This document shows positions 1 to 15,821 of a stretch of DNA of 64,000 bases, one piece after another. Position numbers and translations under genes: made by a program. The stretch comes from Nitrososphaerota archaeon. GTDB lineage: Archaea; Thermoproteota; Nitrososphaeria_A; Caldarchaeales; Calditenuaceae. Positions within the stretch are counted from its first letter, which is position 1; each line of letters begins with the position of its first letter. Under the pieces are notes generated by a model. The model did no database searches and was not told the DNA's origin. It saw nothing but the letters and a program-made list of their open reading frames with translations. Location: positions 602,776-666,775 of the forward strand of contig JBEPYO010000001.1 of NCBI GenBank assembly GCA_041641295.1, written 5' to 3'.

Positions 1-745
1 GGTTGTATCCACGCGCCTTTGCGAAGAGCTGCCCAAGGATCCCTCCAGTCAATACTGCATGGATGCTCTCTGGCCTCTCTTTCAAGAAGCGCTGAAGCAC
101 CTTTACACACTCTACTGGCTTGTTACCTCCTAAGGTGAAGACGATCTTACTGGTTAGGGCGACCATCTTGTTGAGGGCGGAGAGCTCCCTCTCCATAACC
201 CTTCCCGCGTAGGTTGGAAGAAGTGCCGCGAGACCGACGATGGAGGAGTGGGAGCGGTGGGCTACGGAAAACGCGTCTAGGACGAAGATGTCCAGGTGGG
301 GGGCCAGCGTCCGCGGAAGCGTGCTATTAGCATGCTCCTCGGGGGTCTTCTCAACGTCCTCGTCCTCTAGCCGCCTCACGTTGTCCAGTAGTATGGCCTC
401 GCCCTTAGAGAGACCCTTAATCGCGTTTATCGCCTCGGCCCCAACGACATCGGGGATAAACCTTACTTCCTTACCCACAAGGCTTGAGAGTATCTCGGCG
501 TGCTGTCTCAGGTCTGTGAAGTCTGGGTCTCCGCGCCTGCCCTGGTGGGCGAGTATTACCAGTTTCGCACCTCTCTCCATCAGCTCCTTGACTGTTAGCG
601 AGTGGGCCCTGAAACGCTCGTTGAGCTGTATCTTCCCTGTCTGGGGGTCGATGGTGGAGTTGAGGTCCACTCTGAGGGCTACGCGCTTTCCAACTACGTC
701 CACTTGGTCTAGTGTCCTGTACTTAATTTCACCTTGCCCTGCCAC
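1..745 (-). CDS. pgk: Phosphoglycerate kinase, 3'-truncated at the window edge. A GTG start at 745 would overlap the gap stop by 17 nt.
   Basis: The minus-strand translation reads ...VDLNSTIDPQTGKI...ILAHQGRRGDPDF...EEHANSTLPRTLAPHLDIFVLDAFSVAHRSHSSIVGL..., which matches the PGK N-domain and the AHRxHxS signature. The frame is open from 757 downward. The only canonical in-frame start is GTG at 745-743. The + ORF 240..767 is its shadow. Confidence 0.85.
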   Translation of the reverse strand, partial: MAGQGEIKYRTLDQVDVVGKRVALRVDLNSTIDPQTGKIQLNERFRAHSLTVKELMERGAKLVILAHQGRRGDPDFTDLRQHAEILSSLVGKEVRFIPDVVGAEAINAIKGLSKGEAILLDNVRRLEDEDVEKTPEEHANSTLPRTLAPHLDIFVLDAFSVAHRSHSSIVGLAALLPTYAGRVMERELSALNKMVALTSKIVFTLGGNKPVECVKVLQRFLKERPESIHAVLTGGILGQLFAKARGYN

Positions 746-1766
746 GCCCCGACACCATCAGGACTAGGTCAACGAGCCTGTTGCTGTAGCCCCACTCGTT
801 ATCATACCATCCAAAGACCTTGACGAAGTCGCTCTTATCGCCCAAGACAAGTGTCTGGGTGGCGTCGAAGATGCATGAGTGCGGGTTACCTATAATATCG
901 ACGGATACTATGGGGTCCTCTGTGTATTCAACGATGCCCTTCATCCTACCCATGGCCTCCTCCTTGAACACTTGGTTGACCTCCTCGACCGTTACTTGCC
1001 TCTCGAGAACGGCTGAGAGGTCTGTGAGCGACCCGTTCGGTACTGGAACCCTCATGGCAATTCCGTGAAGCTTGCCCTTTACTTCGGGTATGACTTGGTG
1101 GAGGGCGGAGGCTGCTCCTGTAGTGGTGGGGATTATCGATGTGGCTGCTGCCCTAGCCCTTCTCAGGTCTCTGTGGTAGAGGTCTAGGAGCCGCTGGTCG
1201 TTCGTGTACGCGTGGATGGTTGTCATGAAGCCTTTAACCAGTCCGAAGTTGTCGAGCAATATCTTCACCATTGGTGCTAGGCAGTTTGTGGTGCAGGAGG
1301 CACCCGAGATGACGACGTGCTTCGACAGGTCTAGGGCTTGGTCATTCACACCCGGCACTATCGTTACGTCCGCATCGCTGGAGGGGGCCGAGATGATGAC
1401 CTTCTTAACACCATGCTCGAGGTGGCCTGCGGCGTCCTTCCTCTTAGTGAATAGACCGGTCGACTCTACAACCACGTCTACTCCCACCTTATCCCACGGT
1501 ATTTCTGACGGCTTAGAGACAGAGAAGTAGGCGAACTCCCGATTCCCAATCCTGATACCTCCACTCTCGGTTACCTTTACCTCCTCACCCAGCCGGCCGT
1601 GAACAGAGTCGTACTTGATCAGGTGGGCGGTGGTTTTAGCGTCCGCAATATCGTTAAAAGCCACAACCTCGAAAGCCTTTCCATAGAGCGAGTCTTTGAG
1701 GGCGGCGCGGAGGAATAGCCTTCCAATACGCCCCATACCGTTTATTCCGACTCTAACAGGAGCCAC
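729..1766 (-). CDS. gap: Glyceraldehyde-3-phosphate dehydrogenase, archaeal type. The listed ORF runs to 1898; the probable start is GTG at 1766.
   Basis: The NAD-binding motif VRVGINGMGRIGR lies at the N-terminus. Length and overall sequence fit archaeal phosphorylating GAPDH. A TATA-like TTATATTA sits upstream of the GTG at 1766. Confidence 0.85.
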   Translation of the reverse strand: MAPVRVGINGMGRIGRLFLRAALKDSLYGKAFEVVAFNDIADAKTTAHLIKYDSVHGRLGEEVKVTESGGIRIGNREFAYFSVSKPSEIPWDKVGVDVVVESTGLFTKRKDAAGHLEHGVKKVIISAPSSDADVTIVPGVNDQALDLSKHVVISGASCTTNCLAPMVKILLDNFGLVKGFMTTIHAYTNDQRLLDLYHRDLRRARAAATSIIPTTTGAASALHQVIPEVKGKLHGIAMRVPVPNGSLTDLSAVLERQVTVEEVNQVFKEEAMGRMKGIVEYTEDPIVSVDIIGNPHSCIFDATQTLVLGDKSDFVKVFGWYDNEWGYSNRLVDLVLMVSGRGRAR

Positions 1767-1880
1767 GCCTATACAATATGGGTTGTAATATAAGTATGTG
1801 GGGGGCTGAGTGAATATATCTGCGTGGACTTGTATGTTGGGCGTGCTGCGCATTGGAGGGCGGGGAGAATAACTTAAATA
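1767..1880. promoter_or_regulatory. Divergent promoter region shared by gap (minus) and leuA/cimA (plus)
   Basis: AT-rich stretch. TTAAATAT lies about 28 nt upstream of ATG 1881. The reverse strand has TTATATTA upstream of the gap GTG. Both are typical leaderless archaeal TATA spacing. Confidence 0.5.
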
Positions 1881-3497
1881 TTGGCTGGCCTTCAGCATGT
1901 GGCAAGGGGTGTCTCAATCGATTACGTCGAGCTTCTCGATACGACGCTTCGGGACGGCGCCCAGACTAGAGGCGTCTCTCTAAGCCTAAGGGACAAGCTG
2001 AGAATAGCTGAGAAGCTTGACGAACTCGGTATAGACATTATAGAGGCCGGCTGGCCGGGTGCGAATCCAAAGGACTCAGAGTTTTATAAGGCCGTTAAGA
2101 ACGTGTCATTCACGCACAGTAAGCTCGCCGTCTTCGGGAGCACCAAACACAAGAACTCGAGGGTTGACCAAGACCCTATGCTCAAAAGCCTAGTCGAGGC
2201 AGATGTCCCCTACGCCGTCGTGTTCGGTAAGAGCTGGCTACTCCACGTTAGGGAGGTCCTGAGGGCCACGCCAGAAGAGAATCTGGAGATGATCGAGGAG
2301 ACGATAAGCTATCTCAAGGCCCATGGGATGAGGGTGATCTTCGACGCAGAGCACTTCTTCGACGGGTGGAAGGACTCGCCCGACTACGCCCTCTCGGTCC
2401 TGAAGGTGGCCAGCGAGGCTGGGGCGGAGACGCTGGTGCTATGCGACACGAACGGCGGCACCCTACCATCCGAGCTACTAGGCATCGTCAAGAAGGTGAG
2501 GTCCGAGATTAACGCCCGCCTCGGGATACACGCCCATAACGATGCGGGCTGCGCAACCGCAAACAGTCTAGCAGCAGTGGAGGCTGGTGTGCGACATGTC
2601 CAAGGCACATTCATCGGGCTGGGGGAGAGGTGTGGCAACGCAGACTTGGCCCAGATTATACCGGCTCTAAGGCTCAAGATGGGGTTCAAGGTGCTCAAGG
2701 ACGGAGACGTGGAGAGGTTGAAGAAGCTCACCGAGGTTGCAAGGTTCATAGCCGGTGTGACCGGATTCCACCTAGCACCCAACCACCCCTACGTCGGGAG
2801 AAACGCCTTCGCCCATAAAGGGGGAGTCCACATAGACGCCATAATCAAGCACCCGAGAACATACGAGCACATCGACCCCTCGCTCGTCGGAAACGAGAGG
2901 GTCCTCTCCATCTCGGAGCAGGCCGGGAGGTCAGCGCTCATGGACCTGGCCAGACGCATAGGCCTGAACCTCTCTAAGGAGGAGCTGAAGGCGGCGACAG
3001 AGGAGGTAAAGAGGATGGAGTCGCTTGGATACCACTTGGAGCCGGCCGAGGCCACCGTAATCCTCCTCATCCTAAAGCACATAGGCATGTACAGGGAGCT
3101 CTTCGAAGTCAAGAACTGGTGGGTCGAGTCAGTCAACATAGGCAGGAAGATATCCAGAGCCATAGTAACAATATCTGTAAATGGCGACATAGTTACGGCG
3201 ATGGGCGAGGGGGTAGGGCCTGTGCACGCGCTGGACGAGGCTGTCAGGAGCGGAATCTCATCAAGGTTTCCAGCCCTAAGGGACGTCAGCCTCACCGACT
3301 ACAAGGTCCACGTAGTCGACAGCAAGGAGGGGACAGCAGCCTATGTCAGAGTCTTCACAGAGTTTACATGGAGGGAGAGAAGCTGGGTAACAACCAGCGT
3401 CTCCAACAACATAATCGAGGCAAGCCTCTCAGCAATAATCGACGGCTATAGATATCTGCTACTAGCTCTAGAGCCGGGACTATTAAACAACAGATAA
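1881..3497 (+). CDS. leuA: 2-Isopropylmalate synthase or (R)-citramalate synthase, LeuA/CimA family
   Basis: LLDTTLRDGAQ, HAHNDAGCATAN and the C-terminal regulatory domain are present. The protein is 538 aa. Confidence 0.85.
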   Translation: MAGLQHVARGVSIDYVELLDTTLRDGAQTRGVSLSLRDKLRIAEKLDELGIDIIEAGWPGANPKDSEFYKAVKNVSFTHSKLAVFGSTKHKNSRVDQDPMLKSLVEADVPYAVVFGKSWLLHVREVLRATPEENLEMIEETISYLKAHGMRVIFDAEHFFDGWKDSPDYALSVLKVASEAGAETLVLCDTNGGTLPSELLGIVKKVRSEINARLGIHAHNDAGCATANSLAAVEAGVRHVQGTFIGLGERCGNADLAQIIPALRLKMGFKVLKDGDVERLKKLTEVARFIAGVTGFHLAPNHPYVGRNAFAHKGGVHIDAIIKHPRTYEHIDPSLVGNERVLSISEQAGRSALMDLARRIGLNLSKEELKAATEEVKRMESLGYHLEPAEATVILLILKHIGMYRELFEVKNWWVESVNIGRKISRAIVTISVNGDIVTAMGEGVGPVHALDEAVRSGISSRFPALRDVSLTDYKVHVVDSKEGTAAYVRVFTEFTWRERSWVTTSVSNNIIEASLSAIIDGYRYLLLALEPGLLNNR

Positions 3498-3529
3498 TAA
3501 AATAAAAAAGTCTTTGTGGTTGGGATGCT

Positions 3530-4372
3530 TTAGCTTATCGGCTCGAATACATACGTAATGTCAACCGTCACCGTGTATGTTATCTCGCCACTCATTATTG
3601 GTGGTCCGCCAGCACCCTGCCCAGCTACGACCCCGACCTCCGCCCTCGCCATAGGTATGATTCCACCCCCATCTTCAGAGAACAAGACCTGGACCTGCCT
3701 GATTTCTTTAATTCTCATATTTAGGTACTCGGCAATCTTCGAGGCCTTGGCCGTTGCGTCGGCGAACGCCATCTGTAGAGCAGAGTCTCTTAGATTCTTT
3801 CTTGTCTCATCCTTCAGGTCAAACCACGCACCTTGGAAGTTGGTTGCTCCAGCCTGGATGGCGTCGTTAATGATTTTAGGGGCCTCCGATATCAGGCTGT
3901 CCTCGAGCGTCACGGTCACTAGGTTGATGGCGACGTATCCCTCTTGGCGGCATCCGTCTTTGTCGCATATCCAGTTGGGGTTTATCGCTACGTACGATGT
4001 CTTGATGTTCTTCTCATCAACTCCGTTCGCGAGAAGTGAGGCGACGACCCTTCCAGCCACCTCGCTGTTCAGGTTGGAGGCCTCCAACGGTGTTGCGCCT
4101 CGGGTCTCTACTCCGAGCATGAAACTCATCCTGTCCGGCTTTAGCTTGACAGTTCCTATACCCCTGATAGGAACACGAACGCCGGCGACCTCTCCATCTC
4201 CCCCACCATCTCCAGTCTGCAGTGTATACGGAACGCTACTCGCACTGCCTAGCATATTCATCGCGTAGAGGGATGCAGCCAAGACAGCAGCTATCGCCAC
4301 CACTGAGACAGTCAAAGCATATACTGTAGGAATCTCACCCTTGATCCTCCTTATGCCGCTCATGGCTAACAT
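3530..4372 (-). CDS. SIMPL-domain (DUF541) protein with an N-terminal membrane anchor
   Basis: N-terminal TM helix, a Gly-rich linker and a SIMPL/26 kDa periplasmic immunogenic protein-like fold pattern. Confidence 0.6.
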   Translation of the reverse strand: MLAMSGIRRIKGEIPTVYALTVSVVAIAAVLAASLYAMNMLGSASSVPYTLQTGDGGGDGEVAGVRVPIRGIGTVKLKPDRMSFMLGVETRGATPLEASNLNSEVAGRVVASLLANGVDEKNIKTSYVAINPNWICDKDGCRQEGYVAINLVTVTLEDSLISEAPKIINDAIQAGATNFQGAWFDLKDETRKNLRDSALQMAFADATAKASKIAEYLNMRIKEIRQVQVLFSEDGGGIIPMARAEVGVVAGQGAGGPPIMSGEITYTVTVDITYVFEPIS

Positions 4373-4765
4373 GTACCCCCGGACTATATATGTGCCTATG
4401 CCCTATACCCGCGGAGCCCCCAACACCCACACGTCTAAGCTAAATGTGGCTTCGAAGAATCTCTTGGAAACGAGGTTGCTGGAGACACCACTGCTAAACC
4501 TTCCCCCACCCATAGTATAATTTCGAGACCCTTACATTAGTTTAGGTGTCTCAAAGCTTATACGTGGGAGAGTATAAAGCGTGTTACATTAGTGTGTGGT
4601 AGGTGTTAACAGCTGACAATAGAGCAGATAAATACTTGGGAATATGGTGCTAGGCTCATAATAGATGGTGGAATTCCGTACTCCCTACCAGGCAAGGCTG
4701 CTGGGCTGTCGAGAGAGGTTGGAAGAAGTGATCAACGACTATCACCTGAGCTGAAGGATAAGCTT
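4373..4765. other. AT-rich non-coding leader preceding HTH-LAGLIDADG gene 1. Its last ~90 nt are in-frame with and homologous to the N-terminus of paralog 2.
   Basis: Marked GC drop with no ORF of 60 aa or more. The in-frame upstream translation ...PGKAAGLSREVGRSDQRLSPELKDKLMEALE aligns to paralog 2 ...TGKGLGRVRQRMTPEEKKKLMDVLK, but it is closed by TAA at 4607-4609 and has no canonical start. Confidence 0.5.
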
Positions 4766-5926
4766 ATGGAAGCTCTGGAGATTGGGATCCGGAGCGGATT
4801 TAGCTATCATAATGTCTGGAGGATGCTGCGTGGTAGTGGAGTAGAAGTATCGAGGTCTACTGTCAGGAGATATTACTACAAGAGATTTCCTGAGAGGTTG
4901 GGGAAGAGAGGGCCGTGCCTCGACAGGTCTATTAGGATTAAGGTTTTCGGCGAGGTCAAAAGGCTGCGGGGATTGGGACATTCGTACAACAAGATCATAA
5001 GGGAGATAGAAGAGGTGTACGGAGTCCGGCTAAGCAAGTCGCAGGTCAGTGAGTGGTTGAGAGGGATACATAACCCATTCAATGGGTGTAGGATACCGTC
5101 CATAGACTTCCTAGAGAAGACCCCAGAACTCGCATACGTTATAGGGGTTGTCTCTGGCGACGGATGGGCTGTTAGAAAAAGAAAAGGCGATGCTAGGATA
5201 GGGGGCATGGTCAAAGACAGGGAGTTCATAGAAGAATTCTCGAGATGCTTGGGACAGGTTCTTAATAGGTATCCGCCGAAGCCTGCACCAATAGGAAACG
5301 GGTTCTTCCGAGTAATTGTTCAATCAAAGGCTCTCTACGACCTGCTTCGGAAGCCTATCGACATAGAGGTGATAAGACCATTCGTGGAGCATTGTGAAGA
5401 GTGTATGAAGAGCTTTTTGAGAGGATTCTTCGACAGCGAAGGCTCAGTAAGTAGTTATGGCTCTATTACATGCGTCAACACTGACGAAAGACTCATCAAC
5501 TATGTTAAGATGCTTCTAAATAATCTAGGCATCAAAACAACTGGGCCACATCTTCAGATGAAGAGAGGAACACCATTCTTCAGCAAGAAGAGGGGCAAGA
5601 CCTACCGGACAAGAAAGGACGCCTATAGCCTCTACATCAGGACATGCAGCAGGCTAAAATTCTACGAGCTAGTAGGCTTCACAATCAAGAAAAGGCAGCA
5701 AAGATTAGAAGAATACCTGAGGAGACTAGGACGCCTAAACATGCCACCCAGCCAAACCTCCCCCCAAACACTATCCTCAACTCCCATCTCAACCTCCCAC
5801 TCACAATATAGAATATCCGGAATGGCCGCGGGTGGGACTCGAACCCACGATCGCCGGGTCCACAGCCCGGAGTGTTACCAGCTACACCACCGCGGCCACC
5901 GCTACGAGTTCGCAGATTTCAGGTAA
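4766..5926 (+). CDS. HTH-LAGLIDADG homing-endonuclease-like protein, paralog 1. The C-terminal ~50 aa read through the antisense of tRNA-His.
   Basis: Two LAGLIDADG motifs (PELAYVIGVVSGDGWAV and FLRGFFDSEGSVSS) with N-terminal tandem HTH-like segments. It is about 45% identical by eye to ORF 14491..15651. The homologous core ends near 5770; the tail SGMAAGGTRTHDRRVHSPECYQLHH is antisense tRNA. Confidence 0.75.
   Translation: MEALEIGIRSGFSYHNVWRMLRGSGVEVSRSTVRRYYYKRFPERLGKRGPCLDRSIRIKVFGEVKRLRGLGHSYNKIIREIEEVYGVRLSKSQVSEWLRGIHNPFNGCRIPSIDFLEKTPELAYVIGVVSGDGWAVRKRKGDARIGGMVKDREFIEEFSRCLGQVLNRYPPKPAPIGNGFFRVIVQSKALYDLLRKPIDIEVIRPFVEHCEECMKSFLRGFFDSEGSVSSYGSITCVNTDERLINYVKMLLNNLGIKTTGPHLQMKRGTPFFSKKRGKTYRTRKDAYSLYIRTCSRLKFYELVGFTIKKRQQRLEEYLRRLGRLNMPPSQTSPQTLSSTPISTSHSQYRISGMAAGGTRTHDRRVHSPECYQLHHRGHRYEFADFR
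5824..5897 (-). tRNA. tRNA-His (GUG) with a genomically encoded G-1
   Basis: Hand-folded cloverleaf. G-1 pairs with C73. The acceptor is GCCGCGG/CCGCGGC, the D-stem GUGU/ACAC, the anticodon loop CUGUGGA and the T-arm GUGGG-UUCGAGU-CCCAC. No CCA is encoded. Confidence 0.85.
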
Positions 5927-5953
5927 TATATTTGAGGGTGCCGGGTCTTAGAT

Positions 5954-6274
5954 TTAGGCGTATTCCCGCCAAGTGTAGCCGCACTTAGTGCATCTGAAGA
6001 ACTGTGTCATGGGCTCGTCGGCGGATCTTGTCTGGACGCTCCACCAGTAGGCTTCCTGGTTTCCACACTGTGGGCACTGTACGTCGCCGGTCTTCGGCAG
6101 CACCTCCTTCTCAACATCATCGACTATCACTGTTTTCCGCGGCTTCCTCTGTTTGTGGGTGATGATGTCGCCTGTAGGCTTCTTCACATACCCACACTTT
6201 CTACAGACCAGTACTACGCTGTTTGACTTCCGCTCAGTGATTAGGACTGCGTCGCAGCGTGGGCAGAACTCCAT
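5954..6274 (-). CDS. tfs: Transcription factor S / RNA polymerase subunit M (TFIIS-type zinc ribbon)
   Basis: N-terminal CxxC...CxxC and a C-terminal zinc ribbon with QTRSADEPMTQFFRCTKCG. Confidence 0.9.
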   Translation of the reverse strand: MEFCPRCDAVLITERKSNSVVLVCRKCGYVKKPTGDIITHKQRKPRKTVIVDDVEKEVLPKTGDVQCPQCGNQEAYWWSVQTRSADEPMTQFFRCTKCGYTWREYA

Positions 6275-6355
6275 GCCTCATCCTCCACCTCTTACACCGA
6301 GAGAATAGCACCGCACGGTTATTTGATTAACCTTATTCAAGGCCACCCGCCTCTC

Positions 6356-6634
6356 CTATGATAGGAGCTGCTGTATCGACTCTCTCAACCCCTTCGCCCT
6401 TGAGGAGAGTTCGCGTACGCCCTTCAGCAATACGTCGGCGGCTTTATGCCCCTCGCGAGTCCTAAGTATGAACCTTAACGTCCCGATTAGAGGGTGTGTT
6501 AGGGTGACGCCGGCGTATTCAACCTCCTCGAAAGAGTTGAGAACCTCCTGTAGCGAATCAAGGATGCTGAAGTCTATGTCTTTCAGCTCTAGCTCTAAGA
6601 CGTTTTCACCCCTCTCGATTACCTTGACCTCCAG
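6356..6634 (-). CDS. rpoL: DNA-directed RNA polymerase subunit L (Rpb11 homolog). No canonical start codon is present in frame.
   Basis: The minus-frame translation LEVKVIERGENVLELELKDIDFSILDSLQEVLNSFEEVEYAGVTLTHPLIGTLRFILRTREGH... matches RpoL. The frame is open only from 6676. The first in-frame ATG, GTG or TTG is near the C-terminus, so the gene is absent from the ORF track. Confidence 0.75.
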   Translation of the reverse strand: MEVKVIERGENVLELELKDIDFSILDSLQEVLNSFEEVEYAGVTLTHPLIGTLRFILRTREGHKAADVLLKGVRELSSRAKGLRESIQQLLS

Positions 6635-7239
6635 AGCAGACCACCACCCTCCGGTGAAAGCAACCCTCCAAACATCTTAAGGAGCGTATTAACCTTCCCG
6701 TAGTAGGGGACTATCGGCCTGTTAGTATATTTCCTCTTACACCTTGTGCAGAAGAGGGCTCTGCCACTCAGGGTCAGGGGGGCGCCGCATATATCGCAGA
6801 AAGCCTGGAAGACGCCAAGACCACGACCCCTAACCGTGAGGCTGTATATGCCAGAGTAGTCCTCCCGGATCCGCGCTACAATTATGTCTCCCACGGTGAA
6901 GAGTGGTGTTTCGCGGCGTTGTAGGGCTGCCGCTGTCCAGTGGGTCTTGACCGGGTGGCCGGCTGCAGCGAGTATGTCGCAGATAACTAGCTTGTCTTGG
7001 ACCTCTCTAACTTGGCAGAGGACGAGGTCTCCCGTCCTGATCTTTACCGAGGGCTTTGCGGCCTTGACAGAGACCGAGTGTCTCTTCAAGTCGTACTCCG
7101 CAACCCCAGCGACGGTTGCCACCACGGCCCCGTCTTTTAGGACCTCTGCACCCTCACCCGGCATGAACTCCTCCACTACGCAGAGCTTATCGCCTGGAAG
7201 GACTAGCCTGCCTGATGCTTGAAACCTCACTCCGAGCAT
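6619..7239 (-). CDS. csl4: Exosome complex RNA-binding protein Csl4 (S1 domain plus zinc ribbon)
   Basis: S1-like core and the C-terminal zinc ribbon CDICGAPLTLSGRALFCTRC. It is adjacent to rpoL, as in the archaeal exosome superoperon. Confidence 0.8.
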   Translation of the reverse strand: MLGVRFQASGRLVLPGDKLCVVEEFMPGEGAEVLKDGAVVATVAGVAEYDLKRHSVSVKAAKPSVKIRTGDLVLCQVREVQDKLVICDILAAAGHPVKTHWTAAALQRRETPLFTVGDIIVARIREDYSGIYSLTVRGRGLGVFQAFCDICGAPLTLSGRALFCTRCKRKYTNRPIVPYYGKVNTLLKMFGGLLSPEGGGLLWRSR

Positions 7240-7291
7240 AGACTGCTACGGGGAGTAGATAAAGTAGATGTTCCATCATGAGGGGTGTGAG

Positions 7292-7891
7292 ATGGGTGGG
7301 CGGGGGTTGATTGTGGCCATCGAAGGAATTGACGGCGCTGGGAAGACAACCCAGGCTAAGCGGCTTGTGAGATTTCTAAGGTCGAAGGGCGTGGCGGCAG
7401 AGTATACCTCGGAGCCGACCAGCTCCGCCCTCGGAAAGATGATTAAGTCCTACTTGAGGCGGGGAGGAGTGGACCCCCACCTGCTGGCCCTCCTCTTCGC
7501 AGCAGACAGAGTCTACCATCTAAACAAAACTGTCAACCCATTGCTGGAGAGGGGCCGCGTAGTGGTTTGTGACAGATACCTTTACTCGTCCTATGCTTAT
7601 CAGGGCGTGATGACCGGCCATCCCCTTTGGGTCAGGGAGATTAACAGGATGGCCCCACCACCAGATATCGCTGTCCTGCTGGACATCAGCGTTGAAGAAG
7701 CCCTTAGGAGGAAGAAGAGGAGGATAAGGTTCGAGGACCCGGCCTTCCTAGAGGAGGTTAGGAGGGAGTATCTTAGACTGTGCGAGGCTGGGTTGATGGT
7801 AAAGGTAGACGCCGGAGGTGGGGTAGACGCAGTCTTCGTCGAGCTGGTGCGGGTTGTTTCGCCGCGGCTTGGCCTGAGTCCTAGCGCATGA
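7292..7891 (+). CDS. tmk: Thymidylate kinase. The listed ORF starts at 7268; the ATG at 7292 gives a typical N-terminus.
   Basis: P-loop IEGIDGAGKTT and the DRY motif (CDRYLYSSYAYQG). Confidence 0.85.
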   Translation: MGGRGLIVAIEGIDGAGKTTQAKRLVRFLRSKGVAAEYTSEPTSSALGKMIKSYLRRGGVDPHLLALLFAADRVYHLNKTVNPLLERGRVVVCDRYLYSSYAYQGVMTGHPLWVREINRMAPPPDIAVLLDISVEEALRRKKRRIRFEDPAFLEEVRREYLRLCEAGLMVKVDAGGGVDAVFVELVRVVSPRLGLSPSA

Positions 7892-7908
7892 GGGATGCTC
7901 CGTGACTG

Positions 7909-8379
7909 TTATTCTTCACTGCTTCGCAGCATCTTCTTAATCTCCGAGGCCACCGATATGCATGCCTTCTCCACACTTTCAGAGAGGCCTGAGCCCTGCT
8001 CAAATCGCTCACCCTCTATGCCGTAGACAAGTATCCTAGCTGGGAGCATCCTGAGGGAGTCAGCCAAGCCGATAATCTCCGGCAAAGTCATGGTGTGTGT
8101 CGACCTCCACGCAGCCGTCTTTGATAGTTTGTCCGTCGAGTCGAGCCTGTGGATGGTTCCTCCACCAGAGAATTTCTCCATGGCATCGACTATGACCAAG
8201 AGGTCTATGTCGCCTGTCAGGTGGTCTAGAAGCTCGGTGAGCGTCTGAAGCCTGATAACCTCTGCACCAGCCTCTCCCGAGAGCAGGTCGGCGACCCTAT
8301 GCCCAGCCCCATCATCACCCCTAAACGTGTTGCCGATACACGCCACCATTACGCGTCTTCTGCGGCTACTCTTCCTCAA
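7909..8379 (-). CDS. hycI: Hydrogenase maturation endopeptidase (HycI/HyaD family)
   Basis: [15 protein letters not shown] motif, 156 aa. It lies immediately downstream of the hydrogenase large subunit with a 14-nt overlap. Confidence 0.8.
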
Positions 8380-9661
8380 TCTCCAGCTTTAGGAAGTGTG
8401 TCGCACAGGAGATGCATGGGTCGTAGTTTCTTACCGCCTGCTCGAACCGCCAGACTGCCTGGCTACGTGGGAGCCTCACTATCTCGGGGGCTAGGGCCCG
8501 GAGGTCCTCCTCAATCCTCTTCTGGTTCTGGGCTGTGGGGGGCACTATCTTGGCTGAGAGTATCCGGCCCTCGCCATCCACGTCGTATCTGTGGTAGAGT
8601 ATGCCTCTCGGAGCCTCAGTGCATCCGCAACCTCTCCCAGCTCTGACCTGCGGCTCAACCCTAGGACTCGACGGCTCAACATATTCGTCGATAATCCTGA
8701 GAGCCTCCTCAAAGGAGTAGTATGTCTCAGCAACTCGCGCGATTATGCTCTTGAACGGGTTCCTGCAAGGTGTCTTAAAGCCGATTCTCCTTAAGGCCCC
8801 TTTTGTGCGGTCGTGGAGCTTGTCATAGTTAAGGTTGATTCTGGAGAGGGGGCCGACCATGTATGAGCCCCTGCCGACTATGTAGGAGTGTAGCGCATTG
8901 GAGTGTGGGACCTGCTCCTCCGCAAAATAGTCCTCGTACTGGTCAACATCAATGTCCAATCCCTTATTCGACACAATCCTTCCCTCGTTCATCGGATACT
9001 CTTCTGGGTGTCTGAGGGAGACGAACTCGTAGTCCTGCTCAAAAGCAGGGAACTCTAGGTCCGCAACCCACTCCAGCAGGTCTTCAACAGTCGCCATGTT
9101 TTCTACTAGTCGCTCCCTCAGCTCCATTAGCTCGCGCTTAGAAGGCACGCGGTAGAACCCACCTACGCATGCTGAGACAGGGTGAATCTCCCGGCCACCC
9201 AGCAGCGAGACTATATCATTTCCCAGCTTCTTCACCTTGAGGGCATTCTTCACTACTCTGGGGTGTTTCTTAGCCATCTTAATTGCGTCGTCGTATCCTA
9301 GGAAGTCGGGTGCGTGGAGGAGGAAGGCGTGGAGCATGTGGCTCTCTATCCACTCACCACAGTAGTAAAGCCTCCTCAGACTCCTCACCGACGGGGCTAT
9401 GGTTACGCCGAAGAGCCTTTCAAAAGCATGCACCGAGCTCATCTGATAAGCCACAGGGCAAATCCCGCAGATCCTAGCAGTTATATCTGGGGCGTCATAG
9501 TACATCCGGCCCACTAGCAGTGCTTCGAAGAGCCTCGGAGGCTCGAATATCCTGAACTTGACGTCCACCACCTCGCGGCCTCTAAGCTTGATGTAGAGCG
9601 CGCCCTCGCCCTCAACCCTGGCTAGGTAGTCCACACGGTATTCCTTCTCCCTAGCAGTCAA
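8366..9661 (-). CDS. hydA: [NiFe] hydrogenase large (alpha) subunit, group 3b / sulfhydrogenase-like
   Basis: N-terminal [19 protein letters not shown] (RxCGxC...H) and C-terminal DPCISCATH nickel-binding motifs. 431 aa, matching the Pyrococcus HydA size. Confidence 0.85.
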
Positions 9662-10431
9662 GCCTCAGCCTCCACCTCCCTAAAGCCAGGCGCCCAAGCG
9701 TTGAAGAGTCTGAAGGCCATGACGACTTCCTCCCGCCTCCTACCCAGCTCTATGAAACGCTTCATTAGTGACTTAGAGTTAAGCGACTCTTTAGGCCCGT
9801 AGCAGCCATAGCATCCCCTCCCATAGGCTGGGCAGATGGCCCCACAGCCTGCATGAGTCACTGGCCCGAGACATGGAACGCCCCGAGCCACCATTACACA
9901 TGCCGTGCCCCTCAGCTTACACTCGACACAGACGCTCTGGTTGGGAATGCTGGGCGCCCTCCCCGAGAGGTACGCCGAAATCACCTCGAGTAGCTGGTAC
10001 TTGTTTATTGGGCAGCCCCGGAGTTCGAAGTCAACCGGCACGTGGTCTGAGATGGGGGTAGACTTGTCCAGCGTCTCGATGTATTCTGGCTTCGGATAGA
10101 CGTATTTCATAAACTCGGCTGAGCCCCTCCAGTTCCTGAGGGCCTGTATCCCGCCTGCTGTCGCGCACGCGCCTATGGTTATGAGTACTCTGCAGTTCTT
10201 CCTGATCTCTTTGATGAGCTCGGCGTCGTGGGGGGTTGTGATGCTTCCCTCTACTAGGCCGATGTCATATGGGCCCTTAACTACTGCACGGCTTGCCTCC
10301 AAGAAGTACGCGATCTCGAATGTCTCGCCAATTGTTAGCAACTCCTCCTCCAAGTCGAGGATGCTTAGCTGGCAGCCATCACATGACGCGAATTTATAGA
10401 CTGCAATCTTTGGCCTTCTCTTCGCCATCAC
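9658..10431 (-). CDS. hydD: [NiFe] hydrogenase small (delta) subunit. The likely start is [20 protein letters not shown] at 10431, rather than 10542.
   Basis: FASCDGCQ and GCPI Fe-S/NiFe small-subunit motifs. A start at 10431 gives a 4-nt overlap with the hydG stop; the listed longer ORF would overlap hydG by 115 nt. Confidence 0.8.
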
Positions 10432-11285
10432 ACCTCCCTCCGCCCGAAGAAGTTTGAGACTTCTGAGAGGCTGAAGACAGGCCCATCCTTGCAGACGAAG
10501 AACGGGCCGAACTGGCAGTGCCCACATATACCGACGCCACACTTCATATTCCTCTCCATAGAGATGAAAATCCTCTCATCTGGAAGCCCCTGATTCTTCA
10601 ACTCCTGCACGGTAAACCTCATCATTATCTCAGGGCCGCAGACGTATGCATAGGTGTTGTTTGGCTCGAGCCTCAAGTATCTGAACAGTGTTGTGACTAC
10701 GCCTATGTATCCGCGCCACTTCTCATCCCCTCTATCTACAGTGACGAGTAGCTGGGTGTCCAGCCTGCTCCTCCAGACACGCAGTTCTTTCTTATAGAGC
10801 AGGTCGGCTGGCGTGCGGGCCCCATAGAGAACATAGAGCTTCCCATACTTCTCCCTGTTTCTTATTATGTGTTGTATTGCCGGTCTTAGGGGTGCTAAAC
10901 CTATTCCACCCCCAACAATAATTACGTCCTGACCCTCAGCCTCTCTGAGCGGCCACCCCCTACCGAAGGGCCCCCTCAACCCCACGCTCGAACCTATCCG
11001 CGCCGTCGTCAAGGCCTTGGTCACAGGCCCCACCGCCCTCACGGTATGCTCCAGTGTCTGCCCGTTGGAGGAGGCTCCGCTTATGGAGATGGGGACCTCG
11101 CCCACGCCATAGGCGTAGAGCATGTTGAACTGGCCGGGGCTGAAAGCTATCTCGCCACGCCTGAGCGGACGAAGCCTAATGGTGTACGTGTCAGGCGTCT
11201 CTTTATTCCGTCCAACCAATTGGCACCAATCAATCCTGAACGGCTCTAGAGCGGTGGCCGCTCCGAGACTCTGCTCAGTCATCAC
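10428..11285 (-). CDS. hydG: Hydrogenase gamma subunit (FAD/NAD(P)-binding oxidoreductase with a 2Fe-2S cluster, AsrB-like)
   Basis: Ferredoxin-NADP reductase-like fold motifs with the C-terminal [10 protein letters not shown] 2Fe-2S motif. 285 aa. Confidence 0.8.
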
Positions 11286-11767
11286 ACCGCACCAGTCCTC
11301 GGCTCACCGTAGATATCCGCGAGACGCAGCCTAGCAGCCCTAAGCCTGTCAGCGACAACCATCACTATGCGCCGGTAGACCTCGTAGCCGAATTCGATGT
11401 CGCTCTCCATCATCCGCAACATTTTCTCACTGTCGATCGAGATCGCCATCGTGTTCTCAACGGCTACCGCGCCGGCGGTCTTCTTGAAGGGCTCTATGAG
11501 TGAGGACCAGCCCAGAACCTCCCCGCTGCCAATGGTCTCGAACCTGAACTCACCCCGCGGCGGAATATTGAAGTAAAGAGCTACAAGGCCATAGACTATC
11601 AGGTACAGTTTTTTATGCACTTCTCCCTCGCTGAATATCCGCTGCCCCGCTGTGAACCGAACAATGCTAGCGATTGATGCGAGCTCCTTGACCTTCTCCG
11701 CCCGCATGCCCTTGGTGAAGGGGTGGTCGCTCAGCAGTGTTAAGAGCTCGACCTGCTGGCTACTCAT
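11282..11767 (-). CDS. Cyclic nucleotide-binding (CAP effector) domain protein with no DNA-binding domain, embedded in the hydrogenase operon
   Basis: The cNMP-binding beta-roll pattern is present: [20 protein letters not shown]...[12 protein letters not shown]...[13 protein letters not shown]. There are 4-nt overlaps with hydB upstream and hydG downstream. Confidence 0.7.
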
Positions 11768-12948
11768 GTCGCACTCACCTCCAGCACCCTCTGCCTAATC
11801 TTCGCCGCCTCCTCCGTAATATCTATCCCCACTGGGCACCAAGTGATGCACCTGCCACAGCCCACACAGCCCATGACGCCGAACTGGTCAATCCACGTCG
11901 CGAGCTTGTGTGTAAACCACTGACGATACCTGCTCATCCTACTAGACCTGATGGGGCCTCCGTGGATATAGGAGAAGTCGGCATTGAAGCATGAGTCCCA
12001 TCTCCTCCAACGCTCAGCAACATTGCCCGAAAGAGTTGTAACCTCCTCAACAGTCGTGCAGAAGCATGTGGGGCAGACAAGTGTACAGTTAGCGCATGCG
12101 AGACACCTCTCAGCAACCTCTGCGTAGACCGGGCTCTCGAGGTTTTTGTACAACAAGTCCTTCAGACCGTTCACGTCCAGACCCTTCCTAAACAATGTTC
12201 GAGCCCTCTCAATCCTCGCAGCGGCCTCTGAGACTTCCTCGTCAGTCGCCCTCCGCGCACCGATACGCTCTAGGAGGCTCTTGCCAGCACTCGAACCCGC
12301 CTTAGCTACGAAGTAGTGTACACCATCGCCCACTACCTCAGTGAGGCCTATATCGTAGCCCGACCCCGCCTCAGGCCCCGTGCCGACGGATAGGCAGAAG
12401 CAGTTCTCACCCGGCTCGGTACAGTTGACCGCAACTATGAAGACCTCGCGCCTCATTGCCGAGTAGACTGGGTCCACGTATGGGCCGCCCAGCAACACCT
12501 TGTCTAGGACCGAGATGGCGGCGAGCTCACACCCCCTAACCCCTATGAAGGCCAGCTTCTTCCCCAACACGTTGTTGGGGGTGACTTCACCTTTTCTCGA
12601 AACTGTGAAGAGTTTGACGCGGGGTGGATATAGAAACCTCTTCCACGAGTGTGGGCCTACTACGAAGCCGAAGAACGCCTTATCACCTCTCTCCTCTAGC
12701 CTGTAGTATCCTGGCCCCTGCCTATCCCTCAGCCCCACTGGTAGCTGAGAGGCTGACTCAATCTCATCGTACACTATGGCACCCTCCCTGACTACTGGCC
12801 CAATAACAGAGTATCCAAGCCCTCGAAGAGCTGTGATTAGCTCGCCGAGAAGCGGGGGGTCGAGAAGATAATGATCGCTTTGATCTCTAAGTTCCCCCAT
12901 CACATGTTTTAGAGTATTGAAAATCATATAAATATATCGTGCCTTCAT
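11764..12948 (-). CDS. hydB: Hydrogenase beta subunit (4Fe-4S, AsrA-like). An alternative start at 12900 (MGELRD...) would place a TATA box inside the listed first 16 codons.
   Basis: Multiple CxxCxxCxxxCP ferredoxin motifs ([16 protein letters not shown]; [16 protein letters not shown]). It is the first gene of the hydBGDA-type order. Confidence 0.8.
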
Positions 12949-12975
12949 GCTGAAGGTCTATGCTTTCATGCTGAA
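12944..12975. promoter_or_regulatory. Two copies of the inverted-repeat motif TTCA-N3-TGAA (TTCATGCTGAA) spaced 21 nt apart, upstream of hydB. A candidate operator.
   Basis: The sequence is read directly. Copies lie at 12944-12954 and 12965-12975 within the 65-bp AT-rich gap between the mrp stop and the hydB start. Confidence 0.4.
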
Positions 12976-13013
12976 TATTATTGAGATATGTAGACAAGCA
13001 TAAGGGTGTGGAA

Positions 13014-13793
13014 CTAGTCTACACTTAGGCCCGCATTCCTGAGAACGTGTTTGAGCGCATCAGCGAACCGCGTCGAAAGAAGCTCATCCCTCCCCAGCCT
13101 GCCGCTCCGCGAACTCAGCAACGGGTCAAAAGGAATCTCTCCTAGAAACGCAACGCCTTTAGCACGCGCCAGCTCCTTCGTAGGACTCTCAGGGTCGCTG
13201 GTGGACATGTTCTCTACGAGGCCGATTATTTTTAGAGACGCCGACCTCAGAATATCTATGAGTCTTCCGGCCACGTTTACTGCCAAGTGCGTCGGCGTGG
13301 TAATCACGATTGCTCCGCCACTCCTCTTAACGTATTTCGAGATCGTGAGAAGTTCGTCCCCAGTCCCCGGAGGCATGTCTACTAACAGGTAGTCGAGCCT
13401 GCCGAAGGCTGTTAGGGCCAGCATCTCCTTCACGATCTCCTCCTTGGCCTGCCCTGTTAGGGGGAGGGGCCTACCCTTCGAGAAAAGGTCGATGGACATA
13501 ACCTTCAACCCCTCCACCACCGGCGGGACCAGACCCTCTCCCGACTCGACAGGATTGTCCTCAACACCTAGTAGTAGGCATGAAGAGGGGCCATGCAGGT
13601 CGAGGTCGAGCAGCCCTGTCCTATTGGATGCCCGTGAGAGCATGAGGGCGGCGGTGGCGGCTATTAGGCTCTTCCCCACACCACCCTTCCCGCCCGTGAC
13701 CAAGATTATTTGAGAGATTTTTCCTATGTTCTCCTCGATGAGGGAGTCTCTGTAGTCGAGCCGGCCCCCACTATCCCTCGACGCATACGACAT
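13014..13793 (-). CDS. Mrp/MinD/NBP35-family P-loop ATPase (ApbC-like); likely hydrogenase Ni-insertion partner of HypA
   Basis: ILVTGGKGGVGKS deviant Walker A, 259 aa. It overlaps hypA by 23 nt. Confidence 0.8.
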   Translation of the reverse strand: MSYASRDSGGRLDYRDSLIEENIGKISQIILVTGGKGGVGKSLIAATAALMLSRASNRTGLLDLDLHGPSSCLLLGVEDNPVESGEGLVPPVVEGLKVMSIDLFSKGRPLPLTGQAKEEIVKEMLALTAFGRLDYLLVDMPPGTGDELLTISKYVKRSGGAIVITTPTHLAVNVAGRLIDILRSASLKIIGLVENMSTSDPESPTKELARAKGVAFLGEIPFDPLLSSRSGRLGRDELLSTRFADALKHVLRNAGLSVD

Positions 13794-14178
13794 CTCTCAC
13801 ACTCACACCCCGACCCGAGACAATCCTCAAGTCTAGGCTTCCACACCACTTGCAGGCCGCATATGACGCTATCAGATCTGGGAGAAAATGTATCATCTCC
13901 CTCTCCTCCTCGCTGAGACCAGAGATGGCCTCGCCGAAAGTCATAGTGTGGCCGCATGAGCCGCAGCTAATCATAGCAGGCTCAATCTCGATGGAGAACT
14001 CTGCCCCCTTGACCGCGCTGGCCGCGATAAGCCTCTCCAAAGCCTCACGAAGCACACTTGTGTCGAGCATACTCAGCTCACCGACCAAGACCCTAAAGCT
14101 CCTGACACCACAGCCAGACTTTAACGAAAAGTCTCTAACCGACTCGACAACACCCCTCGCGATCGCATACTCATGCAT
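13771..14178 (-). CDS. hypA: Hydrogenase nickel incorporation protein HypA
   Basis: The MHE N-terminus, CGSCGH...CKWCG zinc-finger cysteines and 135-aa length fit HypA. Confidence 0.85.
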   Translation of the reverse strand: MHEYAIARGVVESVRDFSLKSGCGVRSFRVLVGELSMLDTSVLREALERLIAASAVKGAEFSIEIEPAMISCGSCGHTMTFGEAISGLSEEEREMIHFLPDLIASYAACKWCGSLDLRIVSGRGVSVRDVVCVEG

Positions 14179-14490
14179 ATCTCTTAAACAACTACACTAA
14201 CCAACCCATAACCCTTATCCCGGATTTTCAATCCTAACAGTCCAAGGACATCATAGTTTGTTCTTGGACTATTTGTGAATGAGCGATCACTAAAGTATCC
14301 ATATCCTGTGAATTTAGCTTCTATTGTGGCCTATGTGAATGCCTCTGGATTGACTGATCCTCCTCCTTGACTGATAGGCCTTTAGATTGGACGTGAGTGA
14401 CTTATTGGAAATTTAACAATCTTAAACCATAATATACTTTCAGCGAAGTCTCTTAAGAGTTATAAAGCCCCCATACTTGCTATTCTAGTC
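14179..14490. other. AT-rich non-coding leader preceding HTH-LAGLIDADG gene 2
   Basis: GC drops sharply and there are no ORFs. The arrangement is analogous to 4373..4765. Confidence 0.5.
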
Positions 14491-15651
14491 ATGTCTGGAG
14501 AGAGCTGCCCACGCGTAGCGGAGCCTGTAGCAGGGCAGGGAACAGGAGGACTAAATCCCGGTCTTCTCAACGAGCCCGAGGACCAAACAGGGAAAGGATT
14601 AGGAAGAGTCCGGCAGAGAATGACACCGGAGGAAAAGAAGAAGCTCATGGATGTGCTGAAGAGGGAGGCTCTGAGAGGGCTAGGATACGTGAGAATATGG
14701 CGGATGTTAAGGAAGGATGGGGTAAATGTATCGAGGCGGACCGTAGAATACTGGTATCGCAAGTTTTTTCCAGAGAGATTGGGGAGAAGGGGAAAATACC
14801 TTCCACGCGAATTGAGGATAACGCTGTACGAGGAAGTCCTGAGGCTGAGGAGGCAGGGATTAGGTTACAAGAAGATTAGGCGGAGGATTAAAGAATTATA
14901 TGATATCACGCTTGCACCCGCGGTAATTGTTGATTGGTGTAGAGGAATCCATACACCATATGGCGGAATACGAATTCCTACAGTAGACTACCTGAAGCCA
15001 TCCCCAGAGCTAGCTTATGTCATAGGTGTTGTGTGCGGGGATGGATCAGCTGTTAAAACAAGGGGGAGAAGCGGTGAATATGTTATCGGATCTCAAGTTA
15101 AGGATCGAGAGTTTAGCGAGAGATTCGCAGAATGCCTCGGTCGAATACTGAATAGGAGCCCGCCAACGCCGATACTCGTTAGAGGTAAGTTTCAGGTTTG
15201 TGTAAGATCGAGAACTCTTTACCAACTTCTCCGAAAACCAATCGACATAAACAGGATAAAGAATTTCACGGAGCATTGTGAAGACTGCATGAGAAGTTTC
15301 CTAAAAGGCTTCTTCGATAGCGAAGGATCAGTAAGTAAGGAGGGGGAAATTCGCTGTGACAACTCAGACAAACAACTCCTAAACTATGTCAAGACCCTCC
15401 TGAATCGTTTATGCATCGATGTAACAGGGCCGCACTTAGGTGTAAAGAAAGATACGCCCATCTTTAATAAGGATATGCAGAGAATATACATGAGAAAGAA
15501 AGAAGTATATTATCTCAATATCAGGGCTCCATATAGGCTAAAGTATTACGAGCTTGTTGGATTCTCTATTCGAAAGAAACAACAACGAATGGAAAACTAT
15601 TTCAGGAGAAGAGGACTACTGGGGGGTCGCCTACCAGACCACCCCCTATAG
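14491..15651 (+). CDS. HTH-LAGLIDADG homing-endonuclease-like protein, paralog 2
   Basis: LAGLIDADG motifs PELAYVIGVVCGDGSAV and FLKGFFDSEGSVSK with N-terminal HTH-like segments (LGYVRIWRMLRKDGVNVSRRTV; LGYKKIRRRIKELYDI). It is collinear with ORF 4766..5926. Confidence 0.75.
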   Translation: MSGESCPRVAEPVAGQGTGGLNPGLLNEPEDQTGKGLGRVRQRMTPEEKKKLMDVLKREALRGLGYVRIWRMLRKDGVNVSRRTVEYWYRKFFPERLGRRGKYLPRELRITLYEEVLRLRRQGLGYKKIRRRIKELYDITLAPAVIVDWCRGIHTPYGGIRIPTVDYLKPSPELAYVIGVVCGDGSAVKTRGRSGEYVIGSQVKDREFSERFAECLGRILNRSPPTPILVRGKFQVCVRSRTLYQLLRKPIDINRIKNFTEHCEDCMRSFLKGFFDSEGSVSKEGEIRCDNSDKQLLNYVKTLLNRLCIDVTGPHLGVKKDTPIFNKDMQRIYMRKKEVYYLNIRAPYRLKYYELVGFSIRKKQQRMENYFRRRGLLGGRLPDHPL

Positions 15652-15694
15652 TCTCTTTTCACCCCAATCTTGCTGGTGTCTCATTATATAAATG

Positions 15695-15786
15695 CGGGCC
15701 CGGTGGGACTCGAACCCACGGTTTCCGCGCCTTTAACGCTCTGCGGCTTAGGAGGCCGCCGCCTTATCCTTCTAGGCCACGGGCCC
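15695..15786 (-). tRNA. tRNA-Arg (CCU) with an ~18-nt insertion in the variable region, a putative non-canonical intron
   Basis: Hand-folded. The acceptor is GGGCCCG/CGGGCCC, the D-stem GCCU/AGGC, the anticodon stem GCGGC/GCCGC with loop CUCCUAA, and the T-arm GUGGG-UUCGAGU-CCCAC. Total length is 92 nt because 23 nt, not 5, separate the anticodon stem and T-stem. Confidence 0.7.
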
Positions 15787-15821
15787 ATTAACACGCTGTT
15801 TGACGAATTTCAAAAACCTTG

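Follow-up and report, generated by a model that had tools for sequence, protein, structure and literature searches.

The DNA analysed here, referred to as the window, is a stretch of 64,000 nucleotides (nt) from a Nitrososphaerota archaeon (contig JBEPYO010000001.1, positions 602,776 to 666,775), with a guanine-plus-cytosine (GC) content of 54.1%. Near its left end, an open reading frame (ORF A, 4766..5926, plus strand, 386 amino acids (aa), ATG start) runs towards and over a convergent transfer RNA (tRNA) gene, tRNA-His. ORF A belongs to element A, a copy of a small mobile element whose copies measure about 1.0–1.5 kb. The element consists of a short promoter-bearing leader, one HTH-HTH-LAGLIDADG gene (HTH, helix-turn-helix) and a right end that is first C-rich and then A/T-rich. 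It locates directly after the discriminator base of a tRNA, and its gene is convergent with that tRNA.

The first-pass annotation of this DNA had given ORF A two intact LAGLIDADG motifs and tandem N-terminal HTH-like segments, and both descriptions hold. Pfam matches LAGLIDADG_3 in ORF A (E = 4e-17), and the motifs lie at 5129..5164 (LAYVIGVVSGDG) and 5414..5449 (FLRGFFDSEGSV), within an I-DmoI-like double-LAGLIDADG core at about 5129..5737. The predicted catalytic residues are the Asp in GDG (5156..5164) and the Glu in SEG (5435..5443), and copy A retains both as D132 and E225. The two HTH bundles are placed at about 4766..5060, and Pfam gives sub-threshold HTH matches in the first 100 residues of ORF A. 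The second copy that had been annotated at 14491..15651 is ORF B (plus strand, 386 aa), which shares 55% identity with ORF A over 320 aa (E = 2e-121). By Pfam (LAGLIDADG_3, E = 1.5e-13), AlphaFold2 and Foldseek, ORF B is a paralogue of full length that has both HTH bundles and the LAGLIDADG core, and it looks intact.

The structural comparison proposed in the first-pass annotation was carried out with a family profile and with a model of copy B. The profile of 32 family members matches I-DmoI in the PDB (E = 1e-8). The Asp of GDG aligns with the Asp of I-DmoI LIIGDG and the Glu of SEG with the Glu of I-DmoI VAEG, which we take to be the catalytic D21 and E117. In the 32-sequence family alignment, G183-D184-G185 and D276/E278 (copy B numbering) are invariant, and an acidic residue is conserved at the C-terminal end of each LAGLIDADG helix, where such residues form the metal-binding active site of I-DmoI-like endonucleases. 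The AlphaFold2 model of copy B (predicted local distance difference test (pLDDT) 84.8) has a disordered N-terminus, two three-helix bundles (residues 46–92 and 106–151) and a double LAGLIDADG core (residues 172–373) with the expected order of helices and strands (alpha-beta-beta-alpha-beta-beta-alpha halves). When this model was searched with Foldseek, I-DmoI came first (TM-score 0.75 on the target, E = 1e-9), followed by PI-PfuI, other intein endonucleases, WhiA, I-Tsp061I and I-SceI. The protein has the I-DmoI-type fold and keeps both catalytic acidic residues. The HTH module modelled alone reached pLDDT 80.6, and Foldseek of this module against the PDB returned nothing significant, with the ISCth4 transposase on top (E = 0.9). 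The term transposase-like HTH therefore derives solely from sub-threshold or precomputed Pfam hits.

Copy A is a decaying copy, with an early nonsense codon and a lost stop codon. The first-pass annotation had suspected N-terminal decay from homology about 90 nt upstream of the ATG that is closed by a stop, and the DNA alignment agrees. The ATG of copy B aligns with a GTG at 4592, the ancestral start, which is in frame with 4766 and is followed five codons on by a premature TAA (4607..4609); by this nonsense mutation copy A has lost its N-terminus. BLASTP of the translation starting at 4610 against P0004 aligned from residue 23 (E = 1e-18), so that the homology begins at 4676, 90 nt upstream of the ATG. 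The in-frame stretch 4676..4765 (plus strand) is homologous to the N-termini of the family and lies outside any ORF with a start codon. Translation of copy A would restart at the equivalent of Met53. At the other end, the stop of ORF A (5924..5926) lies beyond the whole tRNA-His gene, so the reported antisense reading through the tRNA is real: the last 34 codons or so overlap or pass the tRNA, because the stop codon was lost, and this tail is non-conserved. Homology between copies A and B stops at 5719–5737, that is 86–104 nt from the tRNA 3' end; the reported distance of about 55 bp is reached only if the semi-conserved Pro/Ser tail is counted as part of the core. In the comparison of nonsynonymous with synonymous substitution rates (dN/dS) between copies A and B, synonymous sites were saturated.

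A precise insertion at the 3' end of tRNA-His

The left neighbour of element A codes for a SIMPL-domain protein, and its orthologues (62–85% identity) led to eight loci in several related genomes (L088–L095). At these loci TFS, tRNA-His and SIMPL lie within about 220 nt without an endonuclease gene, while the same interval in the window is 1582 nt. A tRNA-His without the element is present in L089–L095, and in L088 by sequence, since ARAGORN mis-types the intron-containing tRNA-His of L088 as tRNA-Gly(TCC). The empty tRNA-His sites expected among relatives were thus found, and they set the boundary at the discriminator base.

Alignment with the empty sites L088 and L089 delimits element A as a full insertion of 1377 nt at 4447..5823 (plus strand). 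The empty site in L089 reads ...CACCCACACATCCAGGCTAAATGG|GCCGCGGGTGGG..., the left junction in the window ...CACCCACACGTCTAAGCTAAATG|TGGCTTCGAAGAATC... and the right junction ...ATATCCGGAAT|G GCCGCGGGTGGG.... Homology of the left flank to the empty sites continues to ...GCTAAATG (4446). At the right junction (...CCGGAAT|G), G 5824 is the complement of the discriminator base C73, and therefore the insertion comprises 4447..5823 and ends exactly at the tRNA. The target tRNA-His(GTG) (5824..5896, minus strand) is intact by ARAGORN and Rfam (66.8 bits; the callers give 5823/4..5896/7), with its 3' end C73 as the insertion point. These results indicate an insertion polymorphism with a precise junction at the 3' end of tRNA-His.

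The insertion carries a single gene, which is free-standing: it is intergenic, convergent with the tRNA and outside it, and not inside an intron or intein. The 5' non-coding part (4447..4591, plus strand) contains a degenerate TATA-like box at about 4554..4564 that aligns with the TTATAAAG box of copy B. The first-pass annotation had emphasized an AT-rich leader of about 390 bp in a high-GC genome. At 54.1% GC the window does not fit the latter description, and the contrast was overstated, as the 393-nt block upstream of ORF A has 47.3% GC; only 4447..4765 of it belongs to the element, and 4373..4446 is the conserved SIMPL promoter flank. Element A as a whole has 46.8% GC, at about the 5th percentile of 1.4-kb windows. 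Its right end (5738..5823, plus strand) is a C-rich tract coding for Pro/Ser/Thr, followed by an A/T-rich terminus ...CACAATATAGAATATCCGGAAT abutting the tRNA, and the same layout was found in the junction catalogue of 45 loci.

AATG is present at both junctions of element A, as a 4-nt duplication, as microhomology or by coincidence. Neither element B nor those copies in the metagenome-assembled genome (MAG) PSS.bin.6 whose left ends are defined reproduced a 4-nt duplication of this kind, so it was treated as ambiguous. The first-pass annotation had seen neither an integrase nor a duplicate of the tRNA 3' end resembling an attachment (att) site, and this was confirmed. The gene tables list no integrase gene among the neighbouring genes, which are housekeeping genes. 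Looking up the TFS and HypA proteins by exact sequence recovered the same strain only. The repeat search gave only short chance-level matches, with no direct repeat of the tRNA 3' end in 4200..6000 or 14000..15900 and no terminal inverted repeats around both copies. Metagenome DNA scans for the predicted empty tRNA-His allele and for a conserved 18-mer of the SIMPL promoter returned nothing or chance hits only.

Copies in the window, in the genome and across Nitrososphaerota

Element B occupies about 1470 nt at 14224..15693 (plus strand), its left boundary (about ±5 nt) being set at about 14224, where the HypA upstream flank ceases to match L097, L100 and L102. Its leader (14224..14490, plus strand) has 38% GC and the TTATAAAG box 25 nt before the ATG, and the stop of ORF B lies 43 nt from the 3' end of the convergent tRNA-Arg(CCT). 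This intron-containing tRNA, the target of element B, is at 15695..15786 (minus strand) according to ARAGORN and Rfam (the callers give 15694/5..15786), and the right junction reads ...TATATAAATG|C(disc)GGGCCCG. In L097, L100 and L102 the site between HypA and tRNA-Arg(CCT) has no endonuclease gene. A 570-nt AT-rich non-coding block in this interval of L097 (5439..6000, HR02) is at most a putative ORF-less derivative of the element, as BLAST gave no clear match to the element ends. The block occupies the position of element B and ends C-rich and then A/T-rich, resembling the right end of the element.

With tblastn, only these two copies were found in the 64-kb window. The same genome holds a third paralogue (P0002), which stops 3 nt short of a tRNA-Ile. 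The chance that two gene ends fall within about 100 nt of a convergent tRNA 3' end, with three tRNAs in 64 kb, is about 5e-6. The intron-containing tRNA-Ala(CGC) at 19351..19447 (plus strand; Rfam 58.2 bits, missed by ARAGORN) is unoccupied and serves as a control within the window. In two related genomes collinear with window positions 1..4352, an endonuclease copy and tRNA-Pro(TGG) lie about 560 nt upstream of the equivalent of window position 1 (L048 7267.., L052 6244..); a further copy or remnant is probably located just left of position 1 in the window's genome. In the lowest-GC stretch of the window (about 29000..30500, 41%), which has nothing to do with the element, the ORFs code for predicted membrane or Cys-rich proteins.

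The protein search gave 277 clusters. The named NCBI entries among them are Nitrososphaerota, Aigarchaeota or "archaeon HR01" MAGs, and most JGI metagenome entries carry the label "intein-encoded DNA endonuclease-like protein"; the databases describe these proteins as generic LAGLIDADG endonucleases. Several predicted C-termini (GGTRTHD, GGIRTLD or AGFEPATSAV) are antisense translations of tRNA T-arms. For the family scan, one genome per GTDB species was used (188 relatives, of which 80 loci were retrieved), and 83 loci were classed in total. All loci from the genome scan are from Nitrososphaerota, mostly Caldarchaeales. The copy number ranges from 0 to >16 per genome, with at least 17 loci in PSS.bin.6 and at least 8 in another MAG, and many copies are at contig ends. 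No relatives were found among the viral contigs of IMG/VR.

The association with tRNA 3' ends that the first-pass annotation had proposed for copies elsewhere is general. Among the 79 loci with downstream sequence, which come from about 30 Nitrososphaerota genomes, 55–57 have a convergent tRNA within 17–270 nt, against about 0.3 expected by chance (assuming about 46 tRNAs per 1.5-Mb genome). ARAGORN with introns allowed accounts for 45 of the 83 loci (tRNA 3' end 17–270 nt, median 77, past the protein match), Rfam for 3 more, and intron-rich tRNAs recognised by eye for a further 7–9; 3–4 loci have a tRNA 3' fragment or remnant only, about 18 have no tRNA, and 4 lack downstream sequence. The abutting tRNAs cover at least 18 amino-acid specificities, including His, Arg, Ile, Val, Thr, Ala, Tyr, Ser, Asp, Glu, Met, Pro, Asn, Gln, Lys, Cys and Gly.

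The motif CCAGCCAAACC was considered as a family-wide cis element of the right end and rejected, because only about 12 of the 83 loci have it. The last 5–15 nt before the tRNA are usually TATA-box-like, for example TTATATAAA or TATATAAA (window 15680..15693, L012, L025, L030, L033, L037), and this stretch may provide the tRNA with a new terminator, act as a promoter in one or the other direction or belong to the cleavage site. At L035 and L064 the elements sit in clusters of stable-RNA genes, with 5S ribosomal RNA (rRNA; L035 1484..1602) and signal recognition particle RNA (L064 3236..3550) past the abutting tRNA and a few hundred nt from the endonuclease gene.

Spread within genomes is most evident in PSS.bin.6, where copies by Pro, Asn, Met, Lys, Arg, Ser, Ile, Ala, Thr and Glu tRNAs share 78–93% nt identity. 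Ten of its copies are conserved to ...AATAACTAATAT, and their homology breaks 0–3 nt before the discriminator of ten different tRNAs. The nearest neighbour of a copy was in the same genome in 34 of 55 cases (2.2 expected), and the tRNA identity was common to only one of eight typed pairs, so that copies cluster by genome and not by tRNA. These results indicate that copies multiplied within genomes onto different tRNA genes. Presence is also polymorphic at the tRNA-Pro site after PGK, which carries the element in L088, L089 and L052 but not in L090, L091 and L093. Decay is common, with interrupted frames in 24 of 80 loci (about 30%), most PSS.bin.6 copies included. Intact pairs gave dN/dS values of 0.15–0.47, which shows purifying selection on intact copies. 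The pseudogenes and the dN/dS values together form the pattern expected from the life cycle of a selfish endonuclease gene, which invades, is fixed and decays.

The left side of the element is modular. The PSS.bin.6 copies share about 955–985 nt counted from the tRNA junction, and farther upstream each has one of two leader modules. One module begins with AGAAACGCCGCCGAGAATC, abutting unique DNA; this left end is common to five copies (L050, L052, L058, L062, L073), with unique flanks preceding it in L050, L052 and L062. In the long-form subfamily (L003, L006), a leader of about 480 nt is common. Leader modules of 100–400 nt also recur alone, in both orientations and off any endonuclease ORF (L031 2664..3342, L080 6720..7373, L066 about 6080..6190; PSS.bin.6), and these solitary modules behave like small non-autonomous repeats.

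Damaged or duplicated tRNA genes were found at four loci. In L009, the orthologue of the window tRNA-Ala(CGC) is reduced to its last 33 nt (3071..3103, about positions 41–73), the break being at the anticodon-stem/intron position. Next come about 3 kb with six iterons and the endonuclease gene, and then a full tRNA-Ala(UGC). The fragment is either a disrupted dispensable isoacceptor or one half of a split tRNA. The six iteron-like repeats (GGACAGCCACTTGGTTGAC, 4268..4530) are about 30–60 nt apart in a non-coding stretch of about 1.8 kb upstream of the endonuclease gene. In L048 (3900..6720), two decayed endonuclease copies lie in tandem with an intact tRNA-Pro(TGG) between them, and after the second copy comes an internally deleted tRNA-Pro remnant whose 5' flank is similar to that of the intact tRNA-Pro(TGG). 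At about 3950 of the same locus, an inverted element right end abuts another plus-strand tRNA. In L071 and L073, tRNA 3' fragments of 24 and 13 nt follow the element right end. The damage and duplication at these four loci are compatible with aberrant break repair at tRNA genes. A tandem tRNA-Val(CAC) in L004 (6276..6372), considered as a target duplication, was rejected as a scaffold-gap artefact, since a run of N has the same sequence on both sides.

A proposed homing endonuclease for tRNA genes and its rivals

We consider it fairly probable that the family is a free-standing homing-endonuclease element whose generic target is the 3' end of tRNA genes. The first-pass annotation had suggested a gene homing into tRNA 3' flanks, and the fold, the tRNA abutment and the empty sites agree with it; endonuclease cleavage, classical homing and the copying mechanism are proposed from the sequences. 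The enzyme would recognise tRNA genes as DNA. The T-arm/acceptor region, universally conserved and always 12 nt away from position 73, is the probable binding site of its two HTH bundles, with the T-arm box GGTTCGAATCC as a candidate contact, and the LAGLIDADG core would cut at the 3' boundary of the tRNA gene. Reading of the T-arm/acceptor at a fixed distance would give a fixed cut position in any tRNA. An occupied locus would serve as the template for repair of the break; this repair would be allelic and precise when it takes place between the cells of one population, and occasionally it would be ectopic and reach a new tRNA gene. The native tRNA trailer would be replaced by the A/T-rich end of the element, so that the tRNA would stay functional and the insertion would be tolerated.

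Several observations weigh against this reading. The recognition site and the cut position are deduced solely from insertion positions, and the DNA bound by the N-terminal HTH module can only be guessed, as the fold search with this module gave no significant match. Ectopic homing requires homology on two sides, whereas different tRNA loci share about 20–30 nt of tRNA sequence on one side only, and recombination inside this shared part would yield chimeric acceptor stems. Homology-dependent repair alone hardly explains ectopic spread with such short, one-sided homology; candidate routes would include, among others, end-joining of an excised copy and strand-annealing repair that captures microhomology. 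Left ends are modular and differ among subfamilies, and about 18 of the 79 loci are without a downstream tRNA. Finally, the gene stands at one syntenic tRNA locus across Nitrososphaerales-type genomes (L057, L059, L070, L082), which could reflect long-term retention instead of active mobility in these lineages.

Two other readings do without homology-dependent repair. The protein may be a new target-specific insertion enzyme, which reads the universal architecture of tRNA genes as double-stranded DNA and places the element after the discriminator of essentially any tRNA gene, with no need for flanking homology; the irregular loci L009, L048, L071 and L073 would be its by-products. We hold this to be possible, though unlikely. 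Slightly less likely, and still a live alternative, is a transposon-like element, in which the HTH-LAGLIDADG protein itself inserts the element without homologous recombination: the element would be cut out or copied and joined at a cut made at the tRNA 3' end, with the HTH pair in the part of a transposase domain that binds the element ends and the target. The many non-allelic tRNA genes reached within one genome, which fit homology-dependent homing poorly, speak for it, as do the exact right junction, the defined left end of the five PSS.bin.6 copies, AATG at both junctions of element A, with the length of the 4-nt LAGLIDADG overhang, and precomputed Pfam hits of some members to HTH_32, HTH_21, HTH_23 and HTH_38. 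However, the window proteins have HTH hits below the curated cut-offs and the HTH fold search was not significant; the HTH region gave only sub-threshold hits to IS630, IS3 and IS6 models, with no recognised transposase. It also speaks against a transposon that terminal inverted repeats are absent and that neither element B nor the PSS.bin.6 copies whose left ends are defined show a 4-nt duplication. To our knowledge, no LAGLIDADG protein carries out strand transfer or joining.

A domesticated gene is improbable. The gene would then be a host-beneficial partner of tRNA genes, acting in regulation by DNA binding, in termination or in defence against integrating viruses and plasmids whose att sites are tRNA 3' halves, and presence/absence would reflect loss and not gain. 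Such a role would fit the synteny at one intron-rich tRNA in the Nitrososphaerales-type genomes, the purifying selection on intact copies and the precedent of WhiA, a transcription factor with LAGLIDADG and HTH domains and a weaker fold match. However, WhiA has lost the catalytic residues, which are invariant in this family; about 30% of copies are pseudogenes, genomes hold from none to more than 16 copies that cluster by genome and not by tRNA, the GC content is below that of the host, and close relatives function without the gene at the same tRNA. The first-pass annotation had envisaged a small mobile or domesticated family; the pseudogenes, the polymorphic presence of the gene and the grouping of copies by genome speak against domestication.

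Disfavoured as well, and very improbable, is a cargo or remnant of a tRNA-integrating tyrosine-integrase element (SSV/pNOB8 type) whose other genes were deleted: tRNA 3' ends are classical archaeal att sites, the 33-nt tRNA-Ala fragment, 3 kb and full tRNA-Ala of L009 resemble attL/attR in an ambiguous and imperfect way, and L071, L073 and L048 have tRNA 3' fragments or a duplicated tRNA-Pro, but the tRNA-His insertion is only 1377 nt of leader and gene with no att repeat and no integrase nearby, homology between copies ends at the discriminator base and not inside the tRNA, the two 33-mers of L009 differ at about six positions and their tRNAs in anticodon, and the family is absent from viral contigs.

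Relation to known systems and significance

Homing endonuclease genes are normally bound to one target, usually via an intron or intein, and integrases and retrotransposons are known to target tRNA genes. I-DmoI, from the 23S rRNA intron of Desulfurococcus mobilis, is the top match in sequence and fold; like the family protein it is archaeal and thermophilic and carries two LAGLIDADG motifs in one chain, the first with Asp and the second with Glu. Homing endonucleases of this class make site-specific double-strand cuts in long targets of about 20–22 bp, with 4-nt 3' overhangs. I-DmoI is intron-encoded, has about 190 aa and no extra DNA-binding domain, and acts on one rRNA target. In contrast, the family protein is free-standing, has about 170 extra N-terminal residues with the two HTH bundles, and is found at many tRNA 3' ends with its gene outside the target. 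T4 SegB is also encoded by a free-standing endonuclease gene among tRNA genes; it cuts tRNA-gene DNA and promotes the inheritance of its own region. Unlike the family, SegB is a phage-borne GIY-YIG enzyme at one locus, has no precise tRNA 3' junction and does not occur in many copies at the tRNA genes of a cellular genome. PMC13096335 discusses SegB and tRNA.

A sequence-tolerant nuclease positioned by a separate HTH module that supplies the specificity would resemble I-TevI; the latter differs in its GIY-YIG catalytic domain, its C-terminal HTH and its location in an intron. Ty3 of yeast, TRE5/TRE3 of Dictyostelium and SSV1/pNOB8-type elements likewise use tRNA genes as generic safe havens and leave the tRNA functional. 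These elements rely on integrases or reverse transcriptases, and they either recognise RNA polymerase III factors or leave att repeats by recombining inside the 3' half of the tRNA, while the element described here carries neither an integrase nor a reverse transcriptase, lacks att repeats and has its junction exactly at position 73/74. Bacterial WhiA shares the double LAGLIDADG scaffold and an HTH; it is a conserved, single-copy protein with a C-terminal HTH and without the catalytic residues, and the family has N-terminal HTHs, invariant catalytic residues and multicopy, polymorphic genes.

No description of tRNA-abutting LAGLIDADG genes in archaea was found in the searchable literature. In the Caldiarchaeum genome paper, the sole homing endonuclease mentioned is that of an rRNA intron. 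The catalytic family is an established one; novelty lies in the target class, the fusion of domains and the genomic lifestyle. The family appears to be large and undescribed, targeting the ends of many tRNA genes in hot-spring and soil archaea, and its generality across tRNAs, its multiplication within genomes and the decay of its copies are observed directly. It is spread over Caldarchaeales and other Nitrososphaerota, with more than 16 copies in one genome.

Because the elements sit at tRNA loci, these MAGs fragment there, and gene callers report proteins with tRNA-antisense tails (GGTRTHD, AGFEPA). If the proposed homing is true, the family would represent a third, independent way of using tRNA genes as a safe haven, and its protein a natural LAGLIDADG scaffold retargeted by fused HTH modules, which is relevant to nuclease engineering. 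A link between pressure from mobile elements and the fragmented or duplicated tRNA genes of these archaea can be tested, and if the protein were instead a target-specific insertion enzyme, the element would be a driver of tRNA gene disruption in archaea.

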